DNA from: an uncultured Bacilli bacterium
GTDB taxonomy: Bacteria > Bacillota_I > Bacilli_A > RF39 > UBA660
Direction of reading: 5' to 3'
Assembly (NCBI GenBank): GCA_947623995.1
Contig: CANQIN010000001.1
Coordinates: 1 to 57,072 of the forward strand
Length of the DNA stretch: 57,072 bases
The position numbers were made by a program, and so were the translations under genes. Positions 40,059 through 50,632 of this stretch are shown here, piece by piece (within the stretch, counting starts at the first letter, position 1; each line of letters begins with the position of its first letter). The notes beneath the pieces are model-generated. The model was not told the origin of the DNA and did no database searches. It was given only the letters and a program-made list of their open reading frames with translations.

Positions 40059-41081
40059 TTATTTAAAGATATTAAATAATTTACCATTTTTATCATTATC
40101 TTCTTTATTAAATCCCATTTTTTGTAATAAATATTCTAATTCTACATGATTATCCAATTTATCATCTAAATAAGGAATATTAAAATATACTTTACTATTA
40201 GATTCATTTTCAAAATCTTCAACATCATTATTATCTAATACACTTCTATTTAAAATAATTTTATTGCCTTTTAATTTATCAAATATTTGAGGATCTTTTC
40301 TAATTAATTTATTTAACTTAATTAAACCCGGTTCAATTAAATACAAAACATCAGTACAATAATCAATTGCCCCTTCTTCATTTAAATCAATTAATATTAC
40401 ATCACAATTATAATGAGTTGAAATAAATTTTTGCAATTCAAAATGATTAGTATTCATTAAAGTTCGATCATTTAAATAAATAAAATCATTATTATCAACT
40501 TCAACTGCAACGACTTTATAGTTTTTTTCTAATTGTTTTTTTAATAAATATGTTAATGTCGTACTACCAGCATGCTCAGTAACATTTTTTAAACCAATTA
40601 TTTTTACAGAATTAGTTCCAACATAATTTTTTTCTTCTTTAACTTTTTTTTCTTTTTTAGTTGAATGAATATTTTCTTCACTAGCTGTACCCATCATCAT
40701 ATTTAATTGATGATACTGGGCAACATCTTTATAAGTATTAGGATTATCAATTAAAAACTTAACCGCATCTATATTTCTTGTAAAATTATAAATTCCCATT
40801 GATACCAAAGCAGATAAATACTTAGGATCATTTACTAATTCAGAATCATCTAATAATATAATTACTTTACTCATATCCATATTAACAGATAATTCTTGAA
40901 TTACAGAAATATTTTCATAATCTTTAATAGCAGTAATATCTAAAATCATTTTATTATAAAAGAAATTATTAAATTGCGCTATTAATTCTTCAGGTGTATA
41001 TACACCTGAAATACTTTTAATAATATCTATATCAATATTATTTAATAATGATTCGTACTTATTCACAACTTTAACATTCAT
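40059..41081 (-). CDS. TadZ/CpaE-like protein: receiver-like N-domain plus ParA/MinD-fold domain with a degenerate P-loop
   Basis: N-terminal ~125 aa has a CheY-like alternation (KVIILLDD...). The C-terminal VKIIGLKNVTEHAGSTTLTYLLKKQL...VVAVEVD...VILIDLN follows the ParA layout but lacks GKT. Start at the ATG at 41081, 8 nt after AAGGAG. Confidence 0.45.
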   Translation of the reverse strand: MNVKVVNKYESLLNNIDIDIIKSISGVYTPEELIAQFNNFFYNKMILDITAIKDYENISVIQELSVNMDMSKVIILLDDSELVNDPKYLSALVSMGIYNFTRNIDAVKFLIDNPNTYKDVAQYHQLNMMMGTASEENIHSTKKEKKVKEEKNYVGTNSVKIIGLKNVTEHAGSTTLTYLLKKQLEKNYKVVAVEVDNNDFIYLNDRTLMNTNHFELQKFISTHYNCDVILIDLNEEGAIDYCTDVLYLIEPGLIKLNKLIRKDPQIFDKLKGNKIILNRSVLDNNDVEDFENESNSKVYFNIPYLDDKLDNHVELEYLLQKMGFNKEDNDKNGKLFNIFK

Positions 41082-41093
41082 TATATTCACTCC

Positions 41094-41582
41094 TTATTGT
41101 AATTTATATTCTAATCTATCAACCGGAAAATTAATATCAATAGTTTCACCAGTAACTTCAAATGTTAAAATTTCTCCTATAACTGGTAAATTAAATTTGT
41201 AAAAAAATTTAACTGAATACTTCGTACGATTAGTTAAATTACCTTGTCTAGTACTTTTTTTACTAATACAATAGTAATATTTTTCCCTTTTATTTACTAC
41301 TTTTTCTAATGTAAATGAAGATAAATTCCTAGAACCATAATCTCCTTCTTGACAATAATGCATAGTATTATAATTATTATATGATAAATAATTATTTATC
41401 AATTGAATTGAACCATTATTTCCATCTTTTAATCCTTCATATTTTTCTATAAAAGTTAAAGCTTCATTTTTAATTTTAAAAACTTTATTGTAACTTATTG
41501 TTAAAGATAAGAAAGACACAAAAATTAACATAAATGTTACAACTAATCCAATTAACCATACACTACCAGTTGACGTTCTCAT
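41094..41582 (-). CDS. Pseudopilin (TadE/TadF-like minor pilin) candidate
   Basis: MRTSTGSVWLIGLVVTFMLIFVSFLSL: a short polar leader ending in G, then a ~22-aa hydrophobic helix, then a ~130-aa globular part. Confidence 0.45.
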   Translation of the reverse strand: MRTSTGSVWLIGLVVTFMLIFVSFLSLTISYNKVFKIKNEALTFIEKYEGLKDGNNGSIQLINNYLSYNNYNTMHYCQEGDYGSRNLSSFTLEKVVNKREKYYYCISKKSTRQGNLTNRTKYSVKFFYKFNLPVIGEILTFEVTGETIDINFPVDRLEYKLQ

Positions 41583-41588
41583 CCTTAA

Positions 41589-42098
41589 TCACCCCTTATT
41601 TGTATAGATAGGTTTAGTATCTCCTTTAATTCTAAAATTAAATAAATCATGAAATATTGGCAAATCTAATTGATAAAATACCACAACTCTATAATATGCT
41701 ACTGAAGGTAATTCACTAGCAAAATCACCATTTGATCCTATACCTCCACTATCAATTTTAGCAATACAAAATGCAGCATTTTTTTGATTTACCTTACCAT
41801 CTCTACTAAAACCATAATACGTATAATTATCTTCTAAACTTAATACATCACAATTACCAGTAGTTCGATATGCACTATCTATTAAATAAGATGAAATAGC
41901 ACATAATGTTCCTGTAGTATCACTTCCACATTCTGCAGTTAAATTTATTCCGTTATTACTTTGAATCGTTTGAATTATTCTATCTTTAACATTAAATGCT
42001 TTGGACTGATTAATAGTTAAACACATAAAACCAGCAAAGAGTAATACAAAAACAATTACAATTTGAAATAACCATGTACCCCCTATTGCTTCTCTCAT
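41589..42098 (-). CDS. Pseudopilin (TadE/TadF-like minor pilin) candidate
   Basis: MREAIGGTWLFQIVIVFVLLFAGFMCL has the same leader architecture. The globular part contains 4 Cys. Confidence 0.45.
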   Translation of the reverse strand: MREAIGGTWLFQIVIVFVLLFAGFMCLTINQSKAFNVKDRIIQTIQSNNGINLTAECGSDTTGTLCAISSYLIDSAYRTTGNCDVLSLEDNYTYYGFSRDGKVNQKNAAFCIAKIDSGGIGSNGDFASELPSVAYYRVVVFYQLDLPIFHDLFNFRIKGDTKPIYTNKG

Positions 42099-42116: not shown

Positions 42117-42347
42117 TTAACCTTTCCAAACGCATTTAAAATAAGTATTTTGACCTGGCATATGACAGTCAACCTCTTGACAATTATTTGTCTCACACTT
42201 ATTACAAATTGCTTTTGAACAATTAGTATTTTGATTCATATTATTTCTAATCATTGGCCAGATAGTAAAATAGAAAAAGGCAGCTAAGCCTGCTATAGCC
42301 ACAAGTACGACTACTGACATATTTAATTCTCCAGTTGCCTCTTTCAC
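42117..42347 (-). CDS. Short Flp-like pilin paralogue 3 (76 aa, GTG start)
   Basis: (GTG)MKEATGELNMSVVVLVAIAGLAAFFYFTIWP followed by a 6-Cys C-terminal tail. AAGGAGG RBS lies 6-7 nt upstream. Confidence 0.6.
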   Translation of the reverse strand: MKEATGELNMSVVVLVAIAGLAAFFYFTIWPMIRNNMNQNTNCSKAICNKCETNNCQEVDCHMPGQNTYFKCVWKG

Positions 42348-42362
42348 ACTTTTACCTCCTTT

Positions 42363-42599
42363 TTATTTTGTCTCTACATTAGTTCCTTCACAATTTATAG
42401 TAGTTTCATTTCCATTTTGATCTAAAGCCTTACATACTGTACGTTCTTTATTACATTGATACGCTGAAGCACATAATGTTTGACGATTCAAATTATTTTT
42501 AATTGCTGGCCAAATAAACGCATAAAAGAATGCTGCTATTGCTGCTATTGCCACAACAGTTATTACTGTAATATTTAATTCACCTGTCGCTTCTTTCAT
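42363..42599 (-). CDS. Short Flp-like pilin paralogue 2 (78 aa)
   Basis: MKEATGELNITVITVVAIAAIAAFFYAFIWPAIKNNLNRQTLCASAY followed by a divergent 4-Cys tail. Start moved to the ATG at 42599; the ORF-track extension reads through the paralogue-1 stop region. Confidence 0.6.
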   Translation of the reverse strand: MKEATGELNITVITVVAIAAIAAFFYAFIWPAIKNNLNRQTLCASAYQCNKERTVCKALDQNGNETTINCEGTNVETK

Positions 42600-42843
42600 A
42601 ATTAGTTTCCCCTTACTTAACTCCTGTATCTTGTGGCGTGCACTGAACAGAAGTTGGATTTCCATTTTGATCTAAAGCATCACATAAGGTCCCATTACAG
42701 TGATAAGCAGATGCACATAATGTTTGACGATTTAAATTATTTTTAATTGCTGGCCAAATAAATGCATAAAAGAATGCTGCTATTGCTGCTATTGCTACTA
42801 CAGTTATTACCGTAATATTTAATTCACCTGTAGCTTCCTTCAT
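42456..42843. repeat. Tandem duplication (period 244 nt) covering the 5' halves of pilin paralogues 1 and 2
   Basis: 42700-42843 aligns with 42456-42599 with roughly ten substitutions by hand alignment. All are synonymous, since the encoded 47-48 aa are identical. Confidence 0.85.
42613..42843 (-). CDS. Short Flp-like pilin paralogue 1 (76 aa)
   Basis: The first 47 aa are identical to paralogue 2, followed by a divergent 4-Cys tail. ATG at 42843 lies 7 nt after AAGGAGG. Confidence 0.6.
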   Translation of the reverse strand: MKEATGELNITVITVVAIAAIAAFFYAFIWPAIKNNLNRQTLCASAYHCNGTLCDALDQNGNPTSVQCTPQDTGVK

Positions 42844-42877: not shown

Positions 42878-42906
42878 ATTATAACTTTTTTAAATAAAAT
42901 TATCAA
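42878..42906 (-). promoter_or_regulatory. Strong promoter in front of the pilin genes
   Basis: Minus strand reads TTGATA (42906-42901), 17 nt, TATAAT (42883-42878), about 35 nt before the paralogue-1 ATG. Confidence 0.55.
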
Positions 42907-42938: not shown

Positions 42939-45455
42939 TTATTGACGTTTAATAATTTTTCTATAGTATAAAATGAAAAGCAAAAAACTTATAATTGATA
43001 TAATAATTCCAAATTTTAAGCCTTTTATATGATACTTTAACTCTATTTTATGATTACCATCATCTACTGGAATAGAAATTATACCATTTAATATTTTATC
43101 ATAATTTACTTTTTTATTATCTATATTTATTTCAAAACTATTATCATATGGTACTGTAATTATTAATAAATCATTATCATTTGCTGTAAAATCACCAGTA
43201 AATCCAGTTGATAATATTCTAAGATTTTCAATTTTTTTAGTGTTTAATTCACTAATTAAATTTTTGAAATCATTTTCTTTAACATATTCTAAAGCTTCAT
43301 TACCTTTTTCACTATATATTGCATTAAAATCGGGAGTTAAATTTATTTCTATCTTAAATTTATCGCCTTTTTTTAAATTATATATACTATCAACTTTTTC
43401 TTCGTTAACCATTAAATTATAGATTTCTTCTCCACTTTTCTTTTTAATTATTACATTGTTTTCTACTTCAAAGAAAAAGTTTTCCACATTCATATTAATT
43501 TTAGCAACAATATCATTTGGTATATCATAAGTAAATATTACTTTACCAGGTAAACTTTTATCATGAAGAACATATGTATTTTCTTTTTCGTCAATATTTT
43601 CAAAACTTTTTTGAGGATTTAAATATTTAATTTGCAAATCATATTTTTTATTAGTTAACAGATTTAATATATCAATAATATCATTATCACTATATTTTAA
43701 TTGTTCTTCATTTTGATTATTAACAATAAATCCCAAACTTTTAATATAATATTTATTTTCTAAAAAGGATATTTTTGATGAATTAAAAGTATAATTTCTA
43801 ATTACATATTTTAAACCTAATAGGGCATCCATTAAAAAATTATTAGAATAACTTATAACAGAATTATGATGATATTCTGGTCTATAATCTTTTAAAAAAG
43901 TAGTCAAATTATTATTATATATTGATGCAAATCTATTAACTCCATAATAATCGAATAATAATCCATCATTATTAGTTACCTTAGAATTCATTCTAAAAAA
44001 ATTATCATCTTCTTTAAGAACGTTAATTAAATTATCAATATTTTTTATATTTTGTTGATATTCACCAACTGATACATAATTATAATTACTTCCTTGATAA
44101 TTAATATTGATATCCATTATTAAATTAATAGATAACTCAATAATAACTAAAAAATAAGTAATTAAATCAAATTTTGATTTGTGATAAGTAAAAATATAAT
44201 AAATTAAAAAGCAATTACTCAATACTAATAACCAAATATATATTTTTTCAAAGCTAAAACTTAAATAAATATAATTTTTGTATGTAAAAAAAGCTAAAAA
44301 ATATACTATTAATGCAACTAATATTATTATTTTGTTTTTTAACTTAATATTAATTTTTTCAATATCAAAATTATAAGCAATTAAAATCCAAAATGCATTA
44401 AAGCAAAAAACAAAGCGGCCTGGAAATCCAATTGGCTTTTGAAAAAGGTGCCAAGTGTAATAACCAATATTAGTTATTAATGATAATAAATAAATTACTC
44501 CAATAATATATATTGATTTTTTTAATTTTAAATTTTTTTTCTTATCACTTAAATGTAATAAAATAATTACTAAAACAAATAAAGATAAGTATATTGGCGC
44601 GCTGCAATTTGTAGTAACACTCTCACTAGCATAATTACTACCAATAATAAAATTGTATAAAGATCCAATTCCATCTTTATTAAAACCCAAATAATTCATA
44701 CTATTATAATAAATTATTCTTCCAGAAAAAAGACTATTAATAGTTGGTATTAATATAACAGCTGAACTTAATCCACATAATAAACTAGTTAAAAAAAATC
44801 TTATAGTTCTTTGCTTTTTTTCTTTTTTATTTAATGTTGAATTATATAATAAAAAGAAAAAATAAATTACTGAAAATAAACATATCATGTAAGCCGTGTA
44901 ATAATGAATAAATATCATATATGTTAAAGTGATAAAATACATTAAATTTTTATTATCATTAACTATTTTATCTATAGCAATCATTACTAGCGGTAACATA
45001 TAAACAGAATCTAAAAATTGATAATTATGATAATATAAGCTAACAAATCCAGATAAAGCATAAATTGTTGAAAAAATTATCGTTTTACTATTTATGCATT
45101 TTTTATAGTTTAATAATATATTCATTGTTAAACCTGAAAAACCAATTTTAATAAAAAGCAAAATGACATAAAATAAATCAAAGTTTTCCTTTTTAAATAG
45201 AAAATAAAGTAAATTTAAAGGATTGCACAAATATGTTGTAAAAATCGGATAAAAATTTTCTCCTAAGCCAATATTAAAAGTAAAAATATTAAAGTTTTTT
45301 AAACCTTCAAAAAAAGCTGGATACTGTGAAAATGAATCCGATGTTCTAATAGAAAGATTACCAAATGGATAAACATTCATGCTATACATTGCAAAACAAA
45401 ATATCAAAATTGGCAAAATAAAAGCAATTAAATAATGAATTATATTTTTTTTCAT
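42939..45455 (-). CDS. yfhO: YfhO-family polytopic membrane glycosyltransferase
   Basis: 838 aa. The N-terminus (VYPFGNLSIRTSDSFSQYPAFFEGL...LCNPLNLLYFLF) is typical of YfhO. More than 12 TM helices plus a large C-terminal extracytoplasmic domain and a terminal TM helix. Confidence 0.8.
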   Translation of the reverse strand: MKKNIIHYLIAFILPILIFCFAMYSMNVYPFGNLSIRTSDSFSQYPAFFEGLKNFNIFTFNIGLGENFYPIFTTYLCNPLNLLYFLFKKENFDLFYVILLFIKIGFSGLTMNILLNYKKCINSKTIIFSTIYALSGFVSLYYHNYQFLDSVYMLPLVMIAIDKIVNDNKNLMYFITLTYMIFIHYYTAYMICLFSVIYFFFLLYNSTLNKKEKKQRTIRFFLTSLLCGLSSAVILIPTINSLFSGRIIYYNSMNYLGFNKDGIGSLYNFIIGSNYASESVTTNCSAPIYLSLFVLVIILLHLSDKKKNLKLKKSIYIIGVIYLLSLITNIGYYTWHLFQKPIGFPGRFVFCFNAFWILIAYNFDIEKINIKLKNKIIILVALIVYFLAFFTYKNYIYLSFSFEKIYIWLLVLSNCFLIYYIFTYHKSKFDLITYFLVIIELSINLIMDININYQGSNYNYVSVGEYQQNIKNIDNLINVLKEDDNFFRMNSKVTNNDGLLFDYYGVNRFASIYNNNLTTFLKDYRPEYHHNSVISYSNNFLMDALLGLKYVIRNYTFNSSKISFLENKYYIKSLGFIVNNQNEEQLKYSDNDIIDILNLLTNKKYDLQIKYLNPQKSFENIDEKENTYVLHDKSLPGKVIFTYDIPNDIVAKINMNVENFFFEVENNVIIKKKSGEEIYNLMVNEEKVDSIYNLKKGDKFKIEINLTPDFNAIYSEKGNEALEYVKENDFKNLISELNTKKIENLRILSTGFTGDFTANDNDLLIITVPYDNSFEINIDNKKVNYDKILNGIISIPVDDGNHKIELKYHIKGLKFGIIISIISFLLFILYYRKIIKRQ

Positions 45456-46417
45456 AATTTATCAGCTTCTTTCTCGTCTATATCACTTTCTTTTACAATA
45501 TATAATGGTCTATTTTTAGTTTCTAAATATATTTTAGAAATATATGCTGAACAAATACCTAAACAAAATAATTGAATACCAGAAACAAAGAAAATAATAC
45601 ACACCAATGATGGCCAACCACTTACTGGATCACCAAATATTATAGTTTTAAATATTATAACTAAAATTAGTATAAATGATATAAAACAAAATAATATTCC
45701 TAAAAATGTTGATATCATTAATGGCACCGTAGAAAATCCAATTATTGCATCGAAAGCATATAATAATAATTTCCCAAAACTCCATTTAGTTTCTCCAGCA
45801 ACTCTTTTAACATTATCAAATGATATCCATTTAGTTTTAAATCCTAAATAACTAAACAATCCTTTAGAATAACGATTATATTCTGGCATTGATAATATAG
45901 CATCCACTACTTGCCTAGTCATTAATCGAAAATCTCTTTCTCTAGAATCAACTTTAACTTTACTAATTTTAGTAATTAATTTATAAAACATTTCAGCAAA
46001 AAAACTTTTAATTACAGGTTCTCCTTTCCTGTTTTTTCTTCTAGCAATAACAATATCATAATTGGTTTCTTTAATTTCATTATACATGTCAATTAATAAT
46101 TTCGGAGGATGTTGTAAATCAGCATCCATTAAAGCTACTAAATCACCACTTGCTTTTTTTAGTCCAGCATATATTGCAGCTTCTTTACCAAAATTTTTAG
46201 AAAAAGATATATAATGAATAAAATTATTATTATTTTTTATTTTTTTTATTACATTTAATGTATTATCATTACTCCCATCATCAACAAATATTAATTCAAG
46301 ATTTATATTTTCTTTTAAAAATATTTCTTGAATGTTATTTATCTCTTTATAAAATAAAGGTAAGCATTCTTCTTCATTTAAACATGGTACTATAATTGAT
46401 AAAACTTTCTTTTTCAT
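45452..46417 (-). CDS. GT2 polyprenyl-phosphate glycosyltransferase (GtrB/CsbB/ArnC-like)
   Basis: LSIIVPCLNEE, VDDGSNDNT, FGKEAAIYAGL, LMDADLQHPP, two C-terminal TM helices. 4-nt overlap with the yfhO start. Confidence 0.85.
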   Translation of the reverse strand: MKKKVLSIIVPCLNEEECLPLFYKEINNIQEIFLKENINLELIFVDDGSNDNTLNVIKKIKNNNNFIHYISFSKNFGKEAAIYAGLKKASGDLVALMDADLQHPPKLLIDMYNEIKETNYDIVIARRKNRKGEPVIKSFFAEMFYKLITKISKVKVDSRERDFRLMTRQVVDAILSMPEYNRYSKGLFSYLGFKTKWISFDNVKRVAGETKWSFGKLLLYAFDAIIGFSTVPLMISTFLGILFCFISFILILVIIFKTIIFGDPVSGWPSLVCIIFFVSGIQLFCLGICSAYISKIYLETKNRPLYIVKESDIDEKEADKL

Positions 46418-46463
46418 AAATACTCCTAACTATTTATATTCTATCAAATATTTATAAGAAATT

Positions 46464-46490
46464 AAATAAAAAAGATAACCTAAGTTATCT
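46464..46490 (-). terminator. Intrinsic terminator immediately after the TadC-like gene
   Basis: Minus strand reads tAGATAAC-ttag-GTTATCT followed by TTTTTATTT. The stem begins inside the TAG stop codon. Confidence 0.55.
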
Positions 46491-47277
46491 ACATATTCAT
46501 CATCATTAATAATGCAAAAATTAATAATACCATTACTCCTAATCCTGTTGCTATTAACATTTGCATTGTTTTCTTTTCCATTTTCTCTAAACGTTCTTTA
46601 TATTTTAACTCTCTTGCTTTTTGTTGCAAATTAGATATTGTTTTAGAAAACGCTAATAATTGTTCTTGTTTATGTTCTTGTCTACCTAATGATAAACGAT
46701 ATAATAAACGCATCATTCTCATTGAATCTCTTACTGGATATGTTTTAGCAAATGTCATATATGGATTTATTGAACTATCACCAGCATTAACTTCATCAAT
46801 TAATTGTTGTAAACCTTCTTTAAAAATACTAGGTGCATCATTAATTGATTTACCTAAAGCTACAGGAACAGTATAATGTTGAATTAATATTTCTAAACTT
46901 TTTAAGTAATGAGGTAACATTGCATCAATATCATGTAAATGTCTTTTATAATAATTCTTAATATTCATATAATCTAATTTAAATACTAAAAAACCAGCTA
47001 TAAAAGCAAATAATACGGTAATATATGTTAAATTTGAAATAAAGAAACAAAGCATAATCACAATAATTATTAAACCATTTTTAATTCTTTTATTAAATAG
47101 AAAATCGGCATTAGCTGAATCTCCATATTTAGCTTTTACATAAAAATCCCAATCATTTTCTTTTAATCTTTGAAATAAAGTTTCATTATCTGAAACAAAA
47201 CGACTAACACTTATTCTTCCCGTATAATTAAGAACAAATAATATTATAAGTGCTAAGGCAATAATCTCGAAATACAT
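46489..47277 (-). CDS. TadC-like platform protein (single T2SS-F domain)
   Basis: N-terminal TM helix, two central TM helices, a cytoplasmic helical domain (LPHYLKSLEILIQHYTVPVALGKSI...IFKEGLQQLIDEVNAGDS...) and a C-terminal TM helix. This is GspF/TadC-type topology. Confidence 0.55.
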   Translation of the reverse strand: MYFEIIALALIILFVLNYTGRISVSRFVSDNETLFQRLKENDWDFYVKAKYGDSANADFLFNKRIKNGLIIIVIMLCFFISNLTYITVLFAFIAGFLVFKLDYMNIKNYYKRHLHDIDAMLPHYLKSLEILIQHYTVPVALGKSINDAPSIFKEGLQQLIDEVNAGDSSINPYMTFAKTYPVRDSMRMMRLLYRLSLGRQEHKQEQLLAFSKTISNLQQKARELKYKERLEKMEKKTMQMLIATGLGVMVLLIFALLMMMNM

Positions 47278-48173
47278 TATTCCACCCCCACATCTTCATA
47301 ATAGAATCTTTCACCTTTATAAAGAAAGAAACAATTTATCCAAATTATACAATGAAGTATTAATTGAACATACCACATATCTAATAATTTAATATATGAA
47401 TCTGTACCTAGCAAAAATTGCATAGCCATAACTAATAAGAACAATGCTAAACCAAATGTAATAAATCTTTTATGAAAATCTGCTCTATCTATTTGATCAC
47501 GATAAACACCTTCAACTAAAGAATCTATATCCATAGCCATATTTTCTAAAGCTTCGCCTGAATCTTTAGCACCTTCTTTAGTTATTTGTAAAAATAATTG
47601 ATGCATATTTTTAACCATATAATATGGATACTTTTCATTAAAAAATTCAATAGATTCATCAATTGTACCATTTTGATAAGACATATCTATCATAGTTCTT
47701 AAATCTGTCAAAACTGGATCTTCAATAATTCCTGAATCTCTAACTCCTTCTAAGGATTTAACAAAACTTTGAGTTGTATTAAATTCCATTATAACATTAG
47801 TTGTATATGTTTGTATTTGTTCAAAAATATACTCAGAATAAGCTTTTTGACATCTTAAATACGCTAAAAATGGAATAAATAAAACCGCAACTCCAGCATA
47901 TATTACAGTAATTATAATGTTATAGAAATATAAATACGATATACCGCCTGCAACACCTGCAAATAGCACAACTTGTGTTATATATTGTCTTGGAGTATAT
48001 TCTTGCCCTAATTCTTTAACTTTTTCTCTAACTTGTTTGAAACTGTAAGGAGCATATTTATCATATGCATTTGCTACACTTTTAGCAAAAAAGTTATAAA
48101 CATTCTCGCCATTATTCATATAATATGAAATTGCAAAGATAGCAAGTACAATTAATATTACTAACTCAATCAT
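47277..48173 (-). CDS. TadB-like platform protein (single T2SS-F domain)
   Basis: Same topology class as the previous gene. 1-nt overlap with the downstream gene. It follows the secretion ATPase directly, as in tadA-tadB-tadC. Confidence 0.5.
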   Translation of the reverse strand: MIELVILIVLAIFAISYYMNNGENVYNFFAKSVANAYDKYAPYSFKQVREKVKELGQEYTPRQYITQVVLFAGVAGGISYLYFYNIIITVIYAGVAVLFIPFLAYLRCQKAYSEYIFEQIQTYTTNVIMEFNTTQSFVKSLEGVRDSGIIEDPVLTDLRTMIDMSYQNGTIDESIEFFNEKYPYYMVKNMHQLFLQITKEGAKDSGEALENMAMDIDSLVEGVYRDQIDRADFHKRFITFGLALFLLVMAMQFLLGTDSYIKLLDMWYVQLILHCIIWINCFFLYKGERFYYEDVGVE

Positions 48174-48187
48174 ATTCTCCCTTCTTT

Positions 48188-49309
48188 CTACAATGTTTCT
48201 ACTAAATTTGAATTATTACTTACTACTTGATTAGGAGTATTATTCAAATTCTTATTTGGATCAAATATATCTTCTGGTAAAGTAACACCTGAAATACTTA
48301 AATATTCTCTTAGATGATTAGTAGGATTATTCATCGTAATCTCACCAGTCAAAGTTTTTTGAAATATTGTATTTACTTGTGGCTTATTTTGCTCATCAAC
48401 AAAAAATTCACAAATTTCCATAATTTCACGTTGAAATCTACCTAATTCTTTACTCATATAACCTTTAACATATATACCTAACTGAACATAACGATGAATA
48501 GTTGATAAAAATTGTTCAACATCAACATTACTTTCAATTAAAGCAAACATACGCATCGGTATTAAACTTGCTTTATCAGAGTGAATAGTTGATAAAATAT
48601 GGTGCCCAGAAGATATAGAGTTACGAACAGCCATAACAGCCTCTGCACTACGGACCTCGGAAAGTAATATCCATATTGGATTTTGTCGCATACATGTTAC
48701 CAATACATCACTATAACTAGCGATATTATTAGTTTTCATCGCAATTATATCACGATGAGGAAAAATACGATCTAAATGAAGTTCTAGTGTATCCTCAATA
48801 GTTATTATTTTTTCATTTTCTTTTGTATGAGACGCTAAATACTTAACTAACTCTGTTTTACCTGAACCGGTTTCTCCACTAACAATAATATTAGCATGAC
48901 CTTCTACACATTTAAGCAAAAAATCAAGTAAATTTGCCGAAATATATTGTTCATTAATAAGTTTTTCACGATTTAACCTAATTTTAGCTGGTGTCTTTCT
49001 TATTTGACATGCTATACCGTTAGTGGCAATCGAATCATGAACAAAATTTAAACGTAACTCTGCACTCTCAGCATCCAAAAAGGGATGAGCCATATTAAAT
49101 GTCTTTCCCATAACATTAGCACATTGGAATGCCAATTTTTCTAGCAAAGCATTGTTTATATCCGGTCTATCTACTTGATATACACCTTTATCTAAAGATT
49201 TTAACCACACTTGTCCATTATTACATATTGAAATATCGGTAACATTTTCTTCTCTTAAGAATTCATCAATAGGCCCAAAATCAAGTTGAGAAAATATTGC
49301 ATCATTCAT
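48188..49309 (-). CDS. TadA/CpaF-family secretion ATPase (VirB11-like, type II/IV secretion system protein E superfamily)
   Basis: Walker A IIVSGETGSGKTE, Asp box ITIEDTLEL, Walker B WILLSEVR, His box STIHS. About 370 aa with no N-terminal GspE N1 domain. Confidence 0.8.
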   Translation of the reverse strand: MNDAIFSQLDFGPIDEFLREENVTDISICNNGQVWLKSLDKGVYQVDRPDINNALLEKLAFQCANVMGKTFNMAHPFLDAESAELRLNFVHDSIATNGIACQIRKTPAKIRLNREKLINEQYISANLLDFLLKCVEGHANIIVSGETGSGKTELVKYLASHTKENEKIITIEDTLELHLDRIFPHRDIIAMKTNNIASYSDVLVTCMRQNPIWILLSEVRSAEAVMAVRNSISSGHHILSTIHSDKASLIPMRMFALIESNVDVEQFLSTIHRYVQLGIYVKGYMSKELGRFQREIMEICEFFVDEQNKPQVNTIFQKTLTGEITMNNPTNHLREYLSISGVTLPEDIFDPNKNLNNTPNQVVSNNSNLVETL

Positions 49310-49338
49310 GAATTCACCCCAATTCTCTTATTCTTTTT

Positions 49339-50208
<870 letters not shown>

Positions 50209-50227
50209 TTTTATTCCTCCTTAAATT

Positions 50228-50632
50228 TTAATTAGAATCAAGTTCTAACATTGCATCTACTCTATTAACTATATCAAATGTTTCTGCTCCAGAATTTAAT
50301 TGATATGTATTACTCTTAGTTGTTACTTGGACACTTGCCTTTGGTGGAGATTCATATATTCCATAAAAATCTACTTGATAGGTACTTAATGAAACATTTT
50401 CGGCAAATCGTCTTAAAAAATTCTCTACAAATTTTTCACGATTTATTCTTAACTCTCCACTTTCTCGGTAGTAACCATAGTCGACTGCATCGACCATGGC
50501 TGCCTCCGAAATTTCCTTTAATATGTAATAATCTTGAGTATTTGTTGCTGATACATTTGATATTAACATCATTACTACTATTACAAATACTCCTAATGCT
50601 ATTAACCAATATCCCCAATATGCTTCTTTCAT
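50228..50632 (-). CDS. Pseudopilin-like membrane-anchored protein
   Basis: MKEAYWGYWLIALGVFVIVVMMLISNV has the same M-K-E-A leader class as the pilins, followed by a ~100-aa globular part. Confidence 0.4.
   Translation of the reverse strand: MKEAYWGYWLIALGVFVIVVMMLISNVSATNTQDYYILKEISEAAMVDAVDYGYYRESGELRINREKFVENFLRRFAENVSLSTYQVDFYGIYESPPKASVQVTTKSNTYQLNSGAETFDIVNRVDAMLELDSN

Follow-up and report, generated by a model that had tools for sequence, protein, structure and literature searches.

The GT2-yfhO gene pair of the pilus locus

A gene pair with a predicted role in glycosylation was analysed in a stretch of 57,072 nucleotides from an uncultured Bacilli bacterium (contig CANQIN010000001.1 of assembly GCA_947623995.1), referred to here as the window. 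The window is contig C1 of a metagenome-assembled genome (code G000; 1.47 Mb, 25% GC, 93% complete) of which the nearest public records are uncultured Bacilli from the rabbit gut. The pair, a GtrB-like family 2 glycosyltransferase (GT2) gene followed by a gene of the YfhO family, is located in a pilus locus. Every gene of the region is on the minus strand, as are all the features given below by window coordinates. The region encodes, in order, a 246-aa anchored protein, a 1165-aa Cys-rich secreted protein, a DUF5411 prepilin-like protein and an RcpC/CpaB-like protein; then a T2SSE ATPase, polytopic proteins in the TadB and TadC positions, the GT2 and YfhO; and finally three short pilins, two pseudopilins, a 343-aa protein, PcrA and LigA.

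The second gene of the pair (42939-45455) encodes a YfhO-family GT-C glycosyltransferase of 838 aa, assigned by its match to PF09586 (E = 6.3e-126; 422 bits against a cut-off of 28.5; profile positions 1-835 of 835) and by its predicted structure. In the AlphaFold2 model (predicted local distance difference test score 85, predicted template modelling score 0.85), a helical bundle (residues 2-454) is followed by a beta-rich outer domain (459-808) and a last helix (813-837), so that approximately 13 transmembrane helices are predicted, with a large extracytoplasmic domain between the last two. This agrees with the topology described for the YfhO family (PMC5836110). The top Foldseek matches of the model were AftD (E = 1.5e-4, probability 1.0), EmbB and ArnT (probability 1.0), all of them GT-C enzymes that use lipid-phosphate-linked sugars, with low TM-scores (at most 0.43); ALG9 was far down the list (rank 30, E = 0.63, probability 0.69), and the YfhO sequence had no match among the solved structures of the PDB. 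Residue Asp40, in the first outer loop, is invariant in alignments of 11 and 22 sequences and present in 98% of 59 sequences, and probably has a catalytic role. The only named NCBIfam families matched by YfhO are PgfM1 (192 bits against an equivalog cut-off of 1500) and PgfM2 (184 against 1400). Among congeners, the N-terminal 200 aa of YfhO are approximately 80% identical and the remainder only 40-55%, compared with 80-97% for the products of flanking genes.

The first gene of the pair (45452-46417) encodes a 321-aa GT2, predicted by homology to be a polyprenyl-phosphate sugar synthase of the GtrB/CsbB/PgfS type. It matches PF00535 (E = 1.6e-33), and its residues 6-310 align full-length to Synechocystis GtrB (5EKP, chain positions 28-328; E = 6e-73). 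As in other GtrB/CsbB-type enzymes, a GT-A domain with a DXD motif (DAD, residues 98-100, within the acidic motif MDADLQH; a second acidic motif is VDDGSND) precedes two hydrophobic, predicted transmembrane helices at the C-terminus. The best NCBIfam match is PgfS (E = 2.9e-91; 306 bits, the equivalog cut-off being 500). Because the scores of both proteins fall below the cut-offs, the GT2 and YfhO are regarded as relatives of PgfS, PgfM1 and PgfM2 and not as equivalogs. The two open reading frames overlap by 4 nucleotides (ATGA, 45452-45455). An earlier note on this DNA, made without database searches, had described the DxD-type motifs, the two C-terminal helices and the overlap, all of which are borne out, and had proposed that the two proteins synthesize and use a lipid-linked sugar, which holds at the family level. 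A second GtrB-like GT2, 31% identical to the first, is encoded on another contig (G000:C10:3863-6223; L003 1489-3864), where its gene is followed by that of a 478-aa polytopic membrane protein with no family match. This other pair was considered as a possible housekeeping counterpart and rejected, since it is accessory as well, being present in 3 of 47 congeners.

The boundaries of the pair are defined by comparison with the closest relative, G059 (PcrA and LigA 97% and ATPase 94% identical), which lacks it and has its first pilin gene 120 bp behind the TadC-like gene. In the window, a terminator-like hairpin (AGATAAC-TTAG-GTTATCT, with a 7-bp stem and a 4-nt loop) and T-run (46464-46490) start in the stop codon of the TadC-like gene. 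The hairpin is weak (-6.5 kcal/mol, z = -1.7) and was not detected by a generic terminator scan; it is conserved with its T-run in G059 (L042 8553-8580). On the other side of the pair, the pilin promoter TTGATA-17-TATAAT (42878-42906) agrees with the consensus at 11 of 12 positions, is the best promoter-like site of the region, and is also conserved in G059. As the G059 spacer holds both signals, the pair is inserted exactly between the weak terminator and the pilin promoter, which confirms the position and shared orientation reported in the earlier note. The pair may have a weak promoter of its own, with a candidate (TTTAAT-17-TAGAAT, with TG before the -10 element; 46438-46466) recognized by its match to the consensus only and a TAGGAG ribosome-binding site downstream. 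The GC content of the pair is low (19-24%), a consequence of amino acid composition; GC at third codon positions (0.10-0.11) is that of the neighbouring genes, so there is no sign of recent foreign origin, and a foreign-composition signal was rejected.

YfhO genes beside pilin genes in other genomes

At least 18 species, from at least 7 genera, have a YfhO gene in the same orientation as the first pilin gene and 39-119 bp upstream of it. Within the genus g1, the linked genomes are G000, G010, G023, G006 and G001 together with the metagenome genomes L073 and L074; those beyond g1 are G301, G233, G146, G111, G173 and G185, and L195, L196, L200, L203 and L241. In L260, YfhO is upstream of pseudopilin genes, and no short pilin was detected there. 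Cross-matching of coordinates revealed five other genera (G301, G233, G146, G111 and G173) in which YfhO stands directly between the TadC-like and pilin genes; TadA is 67-74% identical in these, and YfhO only 25-29%. Six further linked species were found by scanning public genomes with an alignment of the linked YfhOs.

The association is with the pilin module. One of 40 YfhO loci taken as unlinked, that of G185, has the order YfhO-pilins-pseudopilins-343-aa protein, apart from tadABC. In both G185 (L173 on contig C12 and L085 on C3) and G001 (L039 and L059), tadABC and the pilin module are on different contigs, and YfhO is with the pilin module. The gene behind TadC in these split loci is unrelated to pilins. 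The earlier note had named the 1165-aa Cys-rich protein as another possible acceptor, a suggestion left without support, as linkage tracks the pilin module and not that gene (L173). In G002, the pair is behind the gene of the 343-aa protein, at the other end of the pilin module and still within the locus.

The history of the linkage was examined with a tree of 76 YfhO sequences, not all of them independent, as relatives are included, rooted on Enterococcus and Fructilactobacillus. The pilin-linked YfhOs form four well-supported clades, each of several genera, interleaved with unlinked clades. The linked state changes 6 times on the tree, compared with 17.7 times in shuffles, none of 500 shuffles being as low. 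This fits YfhO lineages that have resided beside pilin genes for a long time; the tree does not give the direction of the changes. By a rough estimate (approximately 197 YfhO copies, genomes of approximately 1,200 genes), about 0.16 such neighbours are expected by chance.

In most of approximately 70 genera, only about 50-130 bp separate the TadC-like gene from the pilins. When this slot is occupied, YfhO is its commonest occupant; the others (an amidoligase cluster, a PDDEXK transposase and a HAD hydrolase) are rare and unrelated. In G012 (L053 8364-11296), the slot is taken up by an amidoligase-like gene (PF12224) together with two others of unknown family, of which one encodes a 533-aa membrane protein. 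The slot of the mouse-gut genome MGBC127997 (L200 3637-8505) holds two tandem YfhOs from different YfhO clades. In the nearest public relative, also from rabbit gut (L073 7076-8814), the GT2-YfhO pair is preceded by a gene for a 512-aa GtrII-type glucosyltransferase (PF14264, 1.9e-31) and by a 61-aa remnant resembling the start of an acyltransferase-3 protein. A 501-aa protein encoded in the slot of L099 was considered as a further GT-C enzyme and rejected, having no Pfam match and no profile similarity to YfhO. Elsewhere, contig C35 of G004 (L015, L023 and L034) carries three tandem YfhO paralogues of approximately 840-890 aa, with two short stop-containing frames between them.

The pilus locus is a core feature and the pair is accessory. 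An orthologue of the pilus-locus ATPase is present in 35 of 47 genomes of the genus (14 of the 15 of high quality) and, in an order-level sample, in 209 of 251 genomes and 94 of 110 genera. YfhO is present in 10 of the 47 congeners and in 134 of the 251 genomes, often in several copies. All pair-bearing genomes of the genus fall in one clade of the TadABC tree, in which G057, G007 and G059 lack the pair; this suggests a single gain followed by two or three losses. The earlier note had named a pilus locus lacking the pair, or a pair sited elsewhere, as evidence that would count against a link to the pilus, and had proposed that linkage with tad genes be checked in related genomes. The check yielded the recurrent adjacency described above together with a patchy distribution: most relatives have the locus and lack the pair, and in L040 the pair is elsewhere in the locus. 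Taken literally, this is the outcome that the note had named; it means only that the pilus can be made without the pair.

Pilins and assembly genes of the locus

Immediately downstream of YfhO are genes for three short pilins with the leader MKEATG|ELN: pilin 1 (42613-42843), of 76 aa, with four Cys in its tail and orthologues in relatives; pilin 2 (42363-42599), of 78 aa; and pilin 3 (42117-42347), of 76 aa, with a GTG start and six Cys in its tail. Pilins 1 and 2 are candidate acceptors. Two pseudopilin-like genes (41094-42098; 169 and 162 aa) follow, each product with a pilin-type leader, and then the gene of a 343-aa protein (40059-41090), which has no family match and by its position closes the pilin module in all relatives. 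The pilin tails contain 4-18 scattered Ser/Thr residues. In nearly all short pilins of the bacterial family (L036-L203), an N-x-T/S triplet directly follows the predicted cleavage site (GELNITV, GELNMTV, GEANMTV, GNLNSTV), including the window pilins at 42613-42843 and 42363-42599. This triplet was rejected as a glycosylation target because it occurs with or without YfhO and is located at the cytoplasmic end of the helix.

The upstream assembly genes (47277-50632) encode, by their Pfam matches, the DUF5411 prepilin-like protein (PF17424, E = 5e-55), the RcpC/CpaB-like protein (PF16976, E = 1.3e-4, below the family cut-off) and the ATPase (PF00437, E = 2.3e-25), and also the TadB-like protein. 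The TadC-like polytopic protein (46489-47277), assigned by position and topology, is encoded at the end of the assembly module, behind the ATPase and TadB-like genes; in every locus examined, its orthologues come directly after the homologues of TadA and TadB. For the TadB- and TadC-like proteins (46489-48173), no Pfam or NCBIfam match, even at E up to 10, and no T2SSF domain was found. The "platform" label given to them in the earlier note can be kept for position and topology only. They and the 343-aa protein, all without family match, are nevertheless conserved across the whole bacterial family. As there is no T2SSF match and the pilin leader lacks the G/XXXXEY motif of Flp pilins, the locus is described only as Tad-like and not as Tad (type IVc). 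Most congeners have two tandem RcpC/CpaB-like genes (loci L045-L069), and the subclade of the window has one. The gene of an A24 prepilin peptidase (C22:11031-11363) is far from the pilus locus.

Predicted function and comparison with known systems

With modest confidence, we favour the interpretation that the two enzymes make up an accessory module devoted to O-glycosylation of the pilus, with an undecaprenyl-phosphate-linked sugar as donor and the pilins as acceptor; conserved gene linkage is what points to this acceptor. Judging from homology, the GT2 would act on the inner side of the membrane, where it would take one sugar from a nucleotide sugar and attach it to undecaprenyl phosphate, and a flippase would turn the lipid-linked sugar outward. 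The YfhO GT-C enzyme, by means of the conserved Asp40 in its first outer loop, would then pass the sugar to Ser/Thr of the pilins encoded next in the locus, in their variable and disulfide-bonded C-terminal tails, while these pilins are in the membrane with their tails outside, before assembly. This waiting position of the pilins would suit a YfhO enzyme mechanistically, and the divergence of YfhO among congeners beyond its N-terminal 200 aa may also speak for pilin targets, as may the precedents in P. aeruginosa and streptococci described below. A likely benefit would be a pilus surface that differs between strains and could, for example, be masked from phages that bind pili or from antibodies of the host.

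Several observations weigh against this interpretation. The pilins have no poly-Ser/Thr tracts, unlike streptococcal substrates, and their Ser/Thr content is equal in YfhO-linked and unlinked loci, so that a substrate signature in the pilins was rejected. Among 60 genera picked regardless of YfhO, none had a YfhO gene within 7 kb downstream of TadA, and 37 of the 47 congeners have no YfhO at all, including G059 with its near-identical pilins. With the hairpin before it and the pilin promoter after it, the pair appears to be a transcription unit separate from the pilins. A conserved cluster may hold a gene in place merely through selection against cluster breaks. Finally, the YfhO of the pair is the sole YfhO of the window genome, which also encodes an LtaS-like protein (about five transmembrane helices and a sulfatase domain), as do all five other tested genomes with YfhO in the slot, so that a classical acceptor is probably available. 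An attempt to rule out teichoic acid on genomic grounds failed for the latter reason.

The most serious alternative, which we consider less probable although substantial, is that of a classical CsbB-YfhO-type module that adds a single sugar to lipoteichoic acid or to some other glycopolymer or glycolipid of the envelope, and that would be found in the pilus locus only because insertions are tolerated between the tadC terminator and the pilin promoter. It would account for an operon architecture identical to that of B. subtilis csbB-yfhO, for the patchy strain-level distribution, which is typical of wall-polymer decorations, and for the transcriptional separateness of the pair, and the slot does take unrelated cargo. 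However, mere tolerance or chance leaves unexplained that YfhOs of four separate clades occupy the same slot and that YfhO stays with the pilins in split loci. In the 93%-complete genome, searches detected neither a GtrA/GtcA flippase (PF04138) nor a wall-teichoic-acid polymerase of the TagF type, and most YfhO copies of the bacterial family are located elsewhere, several of them with a GT2 of their own, which makes them better candidates for polymer decoration.

General protein O-glycosylation of the streptococcal GtrB/PgtC2 type, in which Ser/Thr-rich disordered regions of several membrane proteins would be modified and the pilins would be at most one target, is suggested by the NCBIfam matches of both enzymes, all of which are far under the equivalog cut-offs. 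Candidate substrates do exist in the window genome: a 283-aa membrane-anchored protein (G000:C59:601-1452) with a linker of approximately 110 residues, rich in S, T, N and Q, that resembles streptococcal glycosylated disordered regions, and a ComEA protein with a Ser/Thr-rich linker. The RcpC-like protein of the locus also has a C-terminal SSSSS-N9 stretch before an acidic tail. Such regions are few, however, and a tight, recurrent adjacency to pilin genes is not predicted by a general system, which is therefore judged improbable. It is more improbable still, to the point of being a marginal possibility, that the pair is decaying or functionless cargo in the window genome. At least two to three losses within its clade of the genus, and the shortened, long-branched slot YfhO of G173 in another genus, would be in keeping with decay, but both reading frames of the pair are intact and full length relative to the family models, the invariant residues are retained, and the YfhO fold is modelled with confidence.

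The proposal of the earlier note that the pilins might be the acceptor is partly supported, by the recurrent, clade-wise adjacency of YfhO and pilin genes across genera, and is not helped by the absence of the pair from most relatives. Whether several YfhO lineages are dedicated pilin glycosyltransferases of a Tad-like pilus in this large family of uncultured, small-genome gut Bacilli, which would make them the first enzymes known to modify such a pilus with sugars in a monoderm, seems to us evenly balanced. The earlier note considered such glycosylation undescribed. For pilins this stands, as none of the papers searched linked YfhO to pilins or pilin glycosylation; YfhO-dependent protein glycosylation as such is already known in streptococci. 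If the pilins are the acceptor, the known targets of YfhO enzymes, so far teichoic acids and disordered regions of streptococcal proteins, would come to include pilins, and the pair, which is small and self-contained, would offer a genetic handle on pilus surface variation in abundant uncultured gut bacteria. If the pair serves the envelope instead, it is an ordinary wall-decoration module in an unusual place.

Among known systems, CsbB-GtcA-YfhO (of B. subtilis lipoteichoic acid, with Listeria Lmo1079 for wall teichoic acid) has the same two-gene GT2-yfhO operon and the same predicted YfhO topology, with many transmembrane helices of which the last is preceded by a large outer domain; csbB-yfhO of B. 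subtilis is needed for N-acetylglucosamine on lipoteichoic acid (PMC5836110). The window system differs from it by having no detected homologue of GtcA/GtrA, by its site in a pilus locus, and by an adjacency to pilins that is conserved across genera. The streptococcal systems GtrB/PgtC2 (S. pyogenes and S. pneumoniae) and PgfS/PgfM1 (S. mutans) carry out YfhO-family O-glycosylation of proteins, and the pgf genes of S. mutans cluster with those of their adhesin substrates (PMC12041528). In these systems, including PgfM2, a GT2 lipid-sugar synthase is likewise combined with a YfhO-family GT-C enzyme, and the acceptors are extracytoplasmic proteins. Their known substrates have poly-Ser/Thr disordered regions, whereas the window pilins have none; a few other proteins of the window genome do have extracytoplasmic Ser/Thr-rich regions. 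Unlike S. mutans Pgf, the window system has no PgfE epimerase, and its scores are well below the equivalog cut-offs.

The closest parallel in gene arrangement comes from P. aeruginosa, in which tfpW adjoins pilA. As in the window, a membrane enzyme of the GT-C type is encoded beside the major pilin gene, both in group IV (pilA-tfpW, an arabinosyltransferase) and in group I (pilA-tfpO). The window enzyme, a predicted glycosyltransferase, is distinct in being a YfhO (PF09586) whose gene precedes those of the pilins, and in belonging to a monoderm whose pilus is Tad-like and not type IVa. Pilin is a substrate of the P. aeruginosa tfpW product, and phages specific for the pilus are blocked by glycosylation of the pilin (bioRxiv 10.1101/2020.04.19.049825, 10.1101/150227). 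The two systems are alike in the use of a lipid-phosphate-linked sugar and in acting outside the cytoplasm, both predicted for the window enzyme; in a strain-variable distribution; in a proposed shielding of the pilus from phages; and in a gene directly beside the pilin and conserved in relatives, which for YfhO extends through the species and the four clades described above.

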